IMG/VR virus record: IMGVR_UViG_2534682161_000021 | Location: 1-23,803 of that record | From: a virus | Lineage: Duplodnaviria; Heunggongvirae; Uroviricota; Caudoviricetes | Length of the DNA: 23,803 bases | Reading direction: 5' to 3' (one strand) | Part shown: piece by piece, positions 16,906 to 16,997 of the stretch | Numbering within the stretch: position 1 is the stretch's first letter | Layout: the number at the start of each line of letters is the position of its first letter | Notes under the pieces: model-generated | The model's database searches: none | Seen by the model: the letters and a program-made list of their open reading frames with translations, nothing else | Told to the model about the DNA's origin: nothing | Position numbers and translations under genes: made by a program

Positions 16906-16997
16906 TTCACCCTCCTAAAACTAAGTATTTTTAGATTAAAGGATAATTTTTTTTAGGTCAATGCAATCTAAAATAATTTATATTCAATTCACGGGAG
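16906..16997. promoter_or_regulatory. immunity-switch intergenic region with repeated CTAAAA/TTTTAG half-sites (oR-like, divergent promoters)
   Basis: CTAAAACTAAGTATTTTTAG (16915-16934) and TTTTAGGTCAATGCAATCTAAAA (16951-16972) lie between the cro and cI starts. Confidence 0.5.

Follow-up and report, generated by a model that had tools for sequence, protein, structure and literature searches.

Putative repressor operators with P22-like geometry between cro and cI of a lambdoid Escherichia coli prophage

Genes and predicted promoters of the immunity region

The 23.8-kb stretch of DNA analyzed here (the window) matches a prophage of E. coli MB07081 at 100% identity. On one side, this prophage has genes for Q, RusA, replication, lysis, terminase, head, and tail; on the other, it has ydfA, dicF, dicB, a RecE-like exonuclease gene, xis, and int. 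It appears to be an intact lambdoid element. Of 5426 complete E. coli genomes, 474 have the same immunity region, many O157:H7 genomes among them, and so do two sequenced phages. The central features of the region are as follows.

16256–16681, minus strand: ydaT, CII-equivalent (Pfam YdaT_toxin, E = 6.7e-10, 39.7 bits against a cut-off of 21)
16671–16688: candidate YdaT box, TTGATTttcatgAATCAt, at the cro stop and ydaT start, a PRE-like position
16678–16905, minus strand: cro, 75 aa (WP_001261751.1; Pfam P22_Cro, E = 1.2e-9; PGAP "Cro/CI family")
16906–16997: cro–cI intergenic gap, 92 bp, 26% GC, reading TTCACCCTCCTAAAACTAAGTATTTTTAGATTAAAGGATAATTTTTTTTAGGTCAATGCAATCTAAAATAATTTATATTCAATTCACGGGAG
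17004–17648, plus strand: cI-like repressor gene, 214 aa (WP_000444616.1; Pfam HTH_3 and Peptidase_S24; the C-terminal domain is S24-like and degenerate)
17670–17692, plus strand: intrinsic terminator 3' of cI

A first-pass annotation of the DNA had described divergent cro-like and cI-like genes, each with a ribosome-binding site, and the domain matches agree with it (P22_Cro for one, HTH_3 and Peptidase_S24 for the other). The sequence GGAGGG lies 4 nt before the ATG of cro, and GGGAG lies 6 nt before the cI ATG at 17004. As PGAP places the cI start at 17004 and the ATG at 16998 is unconserved, with relatives having AAA, the gap more likely spans 16906–17003 (98 bp). Cro homologues with 44–60% identity are divergent from cI in most relatives and accompany the module. 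For the N-terminal domain of the repressor, the best solved-structure match is P22 C2 (1ADR, E = 2.5e-7); residues 4–67 match 1ADR, 3JXB, and 2R1J with E-values from 2.5e-7 to 5.9e-7. The candidate YdaT box, TTGATT-N6-AATCAT, agrees at 11 of 12 bases with TTGATT-N6-AATCAA and is the sole match in the window with at most one mismatch. In prophage CP-933P, the site footprinted by YdaT, TTGATT-N6-AATCAA, has a matching location, at the ydaS end (PMC9986795).

Promoter elements were read from the sequence at the following positions.

16933–16938, minus strand: predicted PR −10, TAATCT, 17 nt after the −35
16956–16961, minus strand: predicted PR −35, TTGACC
16969–16974, plus strand: alternative PRM −10, TAAAAT, likewise under operator O3 (below)
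16979–16984, plus strand: predicted PRM −10, TATATT, with a weak −35 (AGGTCA/GTCAAT)
17716–17744, plus strand: predicted PL, TTGACT-N17-TAGTTT, which would drive the ydfA-dicF-dicB-recE early-left operon

At its thresholds, a consensus promoter scan called none of PR, PRM, and PL, so that we infer these positions by hand; its hits were a chance-level antisense match at 17726–17698 and one within cI. PR was missed because its −10 is weak. The predicted start sites are at about 16926 for PR (minus strand), 16991 for PRM (plus strand), and 17751 for PL (plus strand). Conservation is consistent with the assignments: GGTCAA, the complement of the predicted PR −35, is conserved across distant relatives, and the TTGAC of PL is invariant in seven E. 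coli variants, with the same layout in relatives, where the −10 is TAGATT. An Rfam search of the whole window returned DicF and sok only, with no match for the conserved PL leader, and the predicted fold of this leader was no better than those of shuffles (z = 0.19).

An 18-bp dyad in the gap and its recurrence after cI

The first-pass annotation had also drawn attention to a hexamer repeated in the gap, from which it assembled two candidate operators, CTAAAA-N8-TTTTAG (16915–16934) and TTTTAG-N11-CTAAAA (16951–16973). Both are present as letters, and the four copies lie as follows.

16915–16920, plus strand: CTAAAA, the leftmost copy
16929–16934: TTTTAG
16951–16956: TTTTAG
16968–16973: CTAAAA

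A hexamer frequency equal to that of AT-rich background would have spoken against the proposal. Across the 23.8-kb window, CTAAAA/TTTTAG occurs 19 times against 15.8 expected, with no enrichment, and local shuffles of the gap were therefore needed. Four of the 19 copies fall within the 92 bp. At least four copies arose at a frequency of 1e-4 in 20,000 dinucleotide-preserving shuffles of the gap, and any hexamer family of at least three letters reached four copies in 40 of the 20,000 (0.002). The clustering thus exceeds what AT-richness gives.

The conserved unit is nevertheless a different one: an 18-bp dyad, A(A/T)CTAA(A/G)-N4-(T/C)TTAG(A/T)T, present three times in the gap and recurring after the repressor terminator. 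We designate the sites as candidate operators.

16919–16936: O1 (OR1-like), AACTAAGTATTTTTAGAT; perfect CTAA-N6-TTAG core, over the predicted PR −10 and start site
16941–16958: O2 (OR2-like, weak), GGATAATTTTTTTTAGGT; right half good, left half poor; in the predicted PR spacer and −35, just upstream of the PRM −35 region
16966–16983: O3 (OR3-like), ATCTAAAATAATTTATAT; over both candidate PRM −10 hexamers
17693–17710: OL2 (tentative), TTTTAAATATATCTAGAT; weak (2.6 bits, rank 9)
17726–17743: OL1, AACTAAATAGATTTAGTT; exact core, covering the predicted PL spacer and −10, just downstream of TTGACT

The centers of O1 and O2 are 22 bp apart and those of O2 and O3 25 bp, and all three sites have at most one core mismatch. 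Exact CTAA-N6-TTAG occurs only twice in the 23.8-kb window (0.4 expected), at O1 and OL1, while O3 has one mismatch to ATCTAA-N6-TTAGAT. The 4-bp centers of the window sites are TATT, TTTT, ATAA, and TAGA. Searching the whole window for the 18-mer with up to three mismatches gave a background-level count (13 against 11.2 expected); what is informative is the placement of the sites and the matches with at most one mismatch.

A position matrix trained on distant loci only, with the window's own clade left out, ranked O1, OL1, O3, and O2 first to fourth in the window. O1 had the top score, 21.2 bits, which none of 200 shuffles reached; 3.5% of shuffles reached the score of OL1. O2, at rank 4, is not significant alone and is supported by its position, and the conservation of its right half, TTAGGTCAA, could stem from the PR −35 alone. 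When eight variants from E. coli and phages are aligned, the gap is ~95% identical against ~87% for the flanking genes, with variation mostly outside O1–O3. From CTAAGTATTTTTAGATTA to TTATATTCAA, the eight hardly vary, and O1 and O3 are invariant.

The OL dyad lies ~0.8 kb from the sites in the gap, just past the cI terminator, where an OL/PL would be expected in a lambdoid phage. OL1 is kept as AACTAAatacttTTAGAT in E. coli variants, and in the window phage it sits within a perfect 15+2+15 palindrome (17719–17750). OL2 is not significant alone and was assigned by position; in the same place, phage 689R5 has TTTTAAattaatTTAGAT, and mEp460-type relatives have AACTAAgaaaagTTTGGT at the equivalent spot upstream of the −35.

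Recurrence of the motif in relatives and competing readings of the repeats

Relatives were collected by scanning one genome per species with HTH peptide patterns, which yielded 24 usable Enterobacterales loci with repressors 39–52% identical; owing to the retrieval pattern, these share the HTH by design. Exact CTAA-N6-TTAG occurs 66 times in the 129 kb of the 24 loci. The 130 bp upstream of cI hold 46 of these matches and the 260 bp downstream hold 15, which places 61 of the 66 at the two positions. The spacing is strict: in the upstream zones the N6 spacer accounts for the 46 matches, and every other spacer from N2 to N12 for none or one. A site equivalent to O1 adjoins cro in 24 relatives, an exact O3-equivalent site lies 35–49 bp before cI, and an OL1-equivalent site follows cI in 15 relatives; the middle site has the exact core in three loci (L010, L021, L031). 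The family consensus from the matrix of distant loci is AACTAAG-TTAA-CTTAGTT (AACTAAGTTAACTTAGTT). Phage mEp460_4F5 illustrates the pattern. Its repressor is 41% identical and its gap is unalignable with that of the window, yet AACTAAgttttaTTAGAT, TTAGGTCAA, and AACTAAgattacTTAGTA lie between cro and cI, and AACTAAgaaaagTTTGGT and AACTAAgttaagTTAGAT follow cI.

Two contrasts indicate that the motif follows the DNA-binding helix of the repressor rather than its C-terminal domain. Three loci (L026, L029, L030) combine another C-terminal domain with the same HTH (GVSDVTVGYWEK), and in them the motif persists at OR as well as at OL. In phage YeP1, whose repressor is 36% identical, the C-terminal domain is similar but the HTH is another one, and the palindromes are unrelated; this phage was dropped as a relative for footprinting on that account and became a specificity control. 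Half-site position 7 also varies with the helix. With the VTGVT helix, the type found in the window, it is A in 25 of 34 half-sites, and with the VSD helix it is G in 69 and A in 1 of 105, counts that are phylogenetically clustered and non-independent.

These comparisons bear on the earlier proposal of two operators built from one hexamer, CTAAAA-N8-TTTTAG (20 bp) and an everted TTTTAG-N11-CTAAAA (23 bp). Both dyads are rare in the window (0.06 and 0.09 expected) and the local clustering of the hexamer is significant, but the two have opposite polarity and differing spacings, so that no single geometry of a dimer suits both. Close relatives, in which the remainder of the gap hardly varies, have lost or shifted the leftmost hexamer: they read CCCAAATCTAAG, CTTAAAACTAAG, or CTAAAATCTAAG there, O157:H7 EC4115, SS17, and 02E060 (CC(C/T)AAATCTAAG) and O111 (CTTAAAACTAAG) have lost it, and in phage 689R5, locus L006, and strain 503829 it has moved by 1 nt (N9). 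It comprises the A-rich outer flank of O1 and the first base of the cro Shine–Dalgarno sequence and is unconserved as a half-site. The everted dyad spans two neighboring sites, being made up of O2's right half and O3's left half, and TTAG-N10/11-CTAA, found nine times in relatives, is merely this O2–O3 distance. Distant loci have CTAAAA at most once per gap and mostly not at all, yet they keep CTAA-N6-TTAG, and OL1 contains no CTAAAA at all. We consider this reading very unlikely. What stands of the first-pass annotation is an immunity-switch control region with repeated dyad candidates over likely divergent promoters; its two dyads fall away as functional units. Three of its four hexamers nevertheless mark real half-sites, since the half-operator of the window's clade is A(A/T)CTAAA(A/T) and CTAAAA forms positions 3–8 of this 9-bp half: the copies at 16929 (O1 right), 16951 (O2 right), and 16968 (O3 left) do so, and the copy at 16915 does not.

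Might an added function in this particular phage fall to the outer hexamer, together with the extended palindromes of O1 (CTAAAACTAA) and OL1 (32 bp)? They could act as an extended half-site or an overlapping register, giving a fourth site or a difference between Cro and repressor, along the lines suggested for CP-933P with its four inverted repeats. Throughout the family, the flank of the half-site is rich in A (A in 43–52 of 61 sites at positions −4 to −2), TAAAACTAA is common to the left half of O1 and both halves of OL1, and CP-933P has overlapping pseudo-symmetric operators besides its four inverted repeats (PMC8630535). However, even E. coli variants that are ~90% identical fail to conserve the hexamer's CT and the extended arms of OL1, and such an addition seems improbable to us. 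Generic AT-rich promoter features (UP elements, A-tract bending, or sites for H-NS, IHF, or Fis) would suit a gap of 26% GC within horizontally acquired DNA, and an interplay of H-NS with DicA is reported at the analogous Qin locus (PMC3441716). Against this stands a dyad with a strict N6 spacer and an invariant CTAA/TTAG core: it is present again at OL, it goes with the repressor HTH in several genera, and other palindromes take its place where the HTH differs; we regard this explanation as extremely unlikely. The 18-bp dyad with a CTAA-N6-TTAG core is the reading we carry forward.

A proposed switch and its place among known systems

Very probably, 16906–17003 serves as OR in the immunity switch of a lambdoid prophage and has P22-like geometry, with three dyads in the gap and a recurrence at OL. 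We infer binding, order of occupancy, activation, and looping from sequence, position, conservation, and co-variation. Dimers of the cI-like repressor would bind the 18-bp dyads through 7-bp halves, A(A/T)CTAA(A/G), around a 4-bp AT-rich center, and dimers of the P22_Cro-family Cro very probably recognize the same dyads. By analogy to lambda and P22, repressor at O1 and O2 would silence PR (cro-ydaT-replication), and repressor at OL1 would silence PL (ydfA-dicF-dicB-recE). Repressor at O2 may also stimulate PRM, as the O2 center lies ~41 bp before the predicted PRM start; lambda OR2, the position from which lambda repressor activates PRM, is at about −42. O3, filled by Cro or by excess repressor, would switch PRM off, and YdaT at its TTGATT-N6-AATCAT box would give establishment transcription.

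In geometry, the region parallels P22. Both systems have a divergent repressor and P22_Cro-family cro, operators at OR and OL, and 18-bp dyads with 7-bp halves around a 4-bp AT-rich center, the contacted bases here being presumed. The operators of P22 C2, six in all, are 18 bp (ATTTAAG-ATAT-CTTAAAT) with an uncontacted 4-bp center (PMC5175364; PMC4267663). Half-site positions 2–3 are AC here and TT in P22, and P22 repressor no longer binds specifically once T at position 3 is changed to C (PMC4267663); the specificity therefore differs from that of P22 immunity. Position 7 is A in the window's clade and G in P22, and OL has one strong and one weak site here against three in P22. The repressor is ~32% identical to phage 21/DE3 C2-type repressors by tblastn, with P22 c2 itself absent among the matches listed.

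With lambda, the region shares a set of three operators that lie between divergent genes at intervals of roughly two helical turns (22 and 25 bp), a second operator set at the early-left promoter, and a CII-type function encoded after cro. In contrast to lambda, Cro and the CII-equivalent are without sequence similarity, the operator sequence differs, the cI of the window has a Shine–Dalgarno sequence where lambda cI is leaderless from PRM, and 0.8 kb separates OR from OL, against 2.4 kb in lambda.

Gene order matches the Qin dicA-dicC region of E. coli K-12 (cro-like gene, repressor gene, ydfA (DUF1391), dicF, dicB, ydfD), where three operator-like sequences are reported at dicCp and dicBp (bioRxiv 10.1101/2023.04.14.536235). 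Matches to the DicA/DicC family are weak, with NCBIfam scores far below cut-offs. DicA has 135 aa without a C-terminal S24 domain, whereas the repressor of the window has 214 aa with an S24-like domain, and the Qin operator, read from locus L039, is TGTTAG-N6-CTAACA. Identity with the DicA operator was rejected, as this is another motif, and identity with the PaaR2/YdaS operator likewise, the motif there being GTTTAGTAA. CP-933P of O157:H7 also has a lambdoid switch, a YdaT homologue after cro, and a TTGATT-N6-AATCAA-like box at the corresponding junction. Its footprinted operators are 18-bp palindromes at PR/PRM and PL with the half-site GTTTAGTAA and four inverted repeats (PMC8630535). Unlike the repressor here, its PaaR2 is of unrelated architecture and is followed by a toxin–antitoxin pair; the Cro of the window is of the P22_Cro type, with a YdaS_toxin Pfam score of 16.1, below the cut-off of 30.

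Also close are the mEp460-type phages (mEp460_4F5, Kati, LLS) and related Enterobacterales prophages, which have the same operator core and layout and a homologous Cro. They differ in a repressor 41–43% identical, a VSDVA helix against VTGVT, and G against A at position 7. A literature search of incomplete coverage, directed at the operator strings and at studies of mEp460 operators, returned genome-annotation mentions only and no experimental operator study of mEp460-type phages.

Cleavage motifs separate the two groups as well. Placed by multiple alignment with LexA and relatives, as BLASTP of the repressor against LexA was uninformative, they read EAIS ... DDTM ... KKL in the window repressor and VQAG ... 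GDSM ... KKL in the mEp460 type, which has thus retained VQAG and GDSM. EAIS occupies the position of (V/A)AG and lacks the Ala-Gly bond, and DDTM occupies that of G(D/M)SM and has Thr for the nucleophilic Ser; the Lys is retained. The window repressor is in this respect unlike that of P22, being without self-cleavage residues. The same changes are seen in relatives from E. coli, Arsenophonus, Phlomobacter, and Yersinia similis. Given the loss of the Ala-Gly site and the Ser-to-Thr change, RecA-stimulated self-cleavage appears doubtful in this clade, and the lambda-style step of SOS induction is probably inapplicable.

In outline, this is an ordinary lambda/P22-style switch, with no concept beyond that paradigm. 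The one feature that was slightly unexpected, the degeneracy of the repressor's cleavage site, has a bearing on prophage induction. We tentatively raise a further possibility, which we hold to be somewhat doubtful: the clade may represent a distinct, uncharacterized specificity branch of P22-like operators, in which A for G at position 7 co-evolved with the SD-to-TG change in the helix and LexA-type self-cleavage was lost. If so, the switch would be flipped by some other route than classical SOS induction, such as an antirepressor, proteolysis, or slow Thr-based cleavage.

Comparison with relatives can thus mend a plausible but mis-registered dyad call. Operator register and coordinates are now given for an immunity type that is common in E. 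coli and that would control the dicF/dicB/recE early-left operon, and the sites can be put to use in footprinting, in the design of reporters, in typing immunity groups, and in annotating prophages.

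Operator-like sites beyond the cro/cI gap

The predicted operator OL1, which overlies the predicted early-left promoter PL, is enclosed by a perfect 15+2+15 palindrome at 17719-17750 (ACTATAAAACTAAAT-AG-ATTTAGTTTTATAGT). The outer portions of its arms are asymmetric in E. coli variants of approximately 90% identity. Among the compared loci, L015 and L028 each carry two additional exact CTAA-N6-TTAG sites roughly 0.5 kb 5' of cI, set 49 bp apart, equal to the O1-O3 spacing of the predicted operators in the cro/cI gap. A recognizable Cro homologue is absent from both loci, and the extra sites may represent a displaced or second operator region. 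The immunity region of this E. coli prophage, its repressor 93% identical, is also present on a 1.8-kb contig (L006, JAIHTM010000357.1) assigned to a Collinsella sp. MAG; the contig is very probably a contaminant of that bin.

Where cro ends and ydaT begins lies a candidate box for YdaT, the CII equivalent. In the O157:H7 prophage CP-933P, the YdaT operator TTGATT-N6-AATCAA has been footprinted; the predicted window box is located at the analogous PRE-like position.

Sites outside the cro/cI gap
16671-16688: candidate YdaT box TTGATTttcatgAATCAt, across the cro stop and ydaT start, 11 of 12 bases matching TTGATT-N6-AATCAA
L015, -490/-441 from cI: extra CTAA-N6-TTAG pair, exact matches
L028, -566/-517 from cI: extra CTAA-N6-TTAG pair, exact matches

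The predicted PL leader, small RNAs and possible cargo genes

Within the transcript leader 3' of the predicted PL (window ~17755-17850) lies the block AAGTAGCC-N4-6-GAGGCGTA(T/A)GAA. The same block occurs in L004, L005, L007-L009, L017 and L020, and is kept across loci of differing immunity types, including the phage YeP1, which has a different HTH and unrelated palindromes. One possibility is a hairpin supported by compensatory changes (CCCGA/TCGGG, CCCCA/TGGGG, CGGT/ACCG); another is a Shine-Dalgarno sequence followed by the first codons of a very short ORF (MKIGMIR). Rfam gave no hit to the block, and the leader, folded as a single sequence, did not exceed shuffled sequences. The DUF1391 (ydfA-like) gene at 17840-18070 was called mechanically as an ORF from 17840 (76 aa), while PGAP places its start at 17918; the true start is uncertain because the upstream ATGACGGCAGGG is part of the conserved leader block.

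Small RNAs
18984-19035, + strand: DicF sRNA (76.7 bits), in the PL operon, 5' of dicB
9220-9394, - strand: sok antitoxin RNA (108 bits), adjoining a hok pseudogene

Elsewhere, a zeta-toxin family gene and a neighboring hypothetical gene on the opposite strand occupy window ~11590-12940 (6988-8338 in L001), between Q/RusA/DUF968 and the replication genes. The pair may be moron or defence cargo.

Cleavage motifs of the repressor

By alignment, the S24-like domain of the window repressor (cI, 17004-17648) lacks the Ala-Gly cleavage bond, with EAIS replacing VQAG/VAAG, and the catalytic Ser of LexA/cI is Thr (DDTM versus GDSM/GMSM); the two motifs fall at residues ~88-91 and 125-128. The Lys is retained. 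In the same alignment, these changes are common to relatives from E. coli O157, phage 689R5, Arsenophonus, Phlomobacter and Yersinia similis, and are absent from the mEp460-type lambdoid relatives, which share the operator core. The missing Ala-Gly bond and the Ser-to-Thr replacement suggest a repressor that would not be cleaved in the SOS response.
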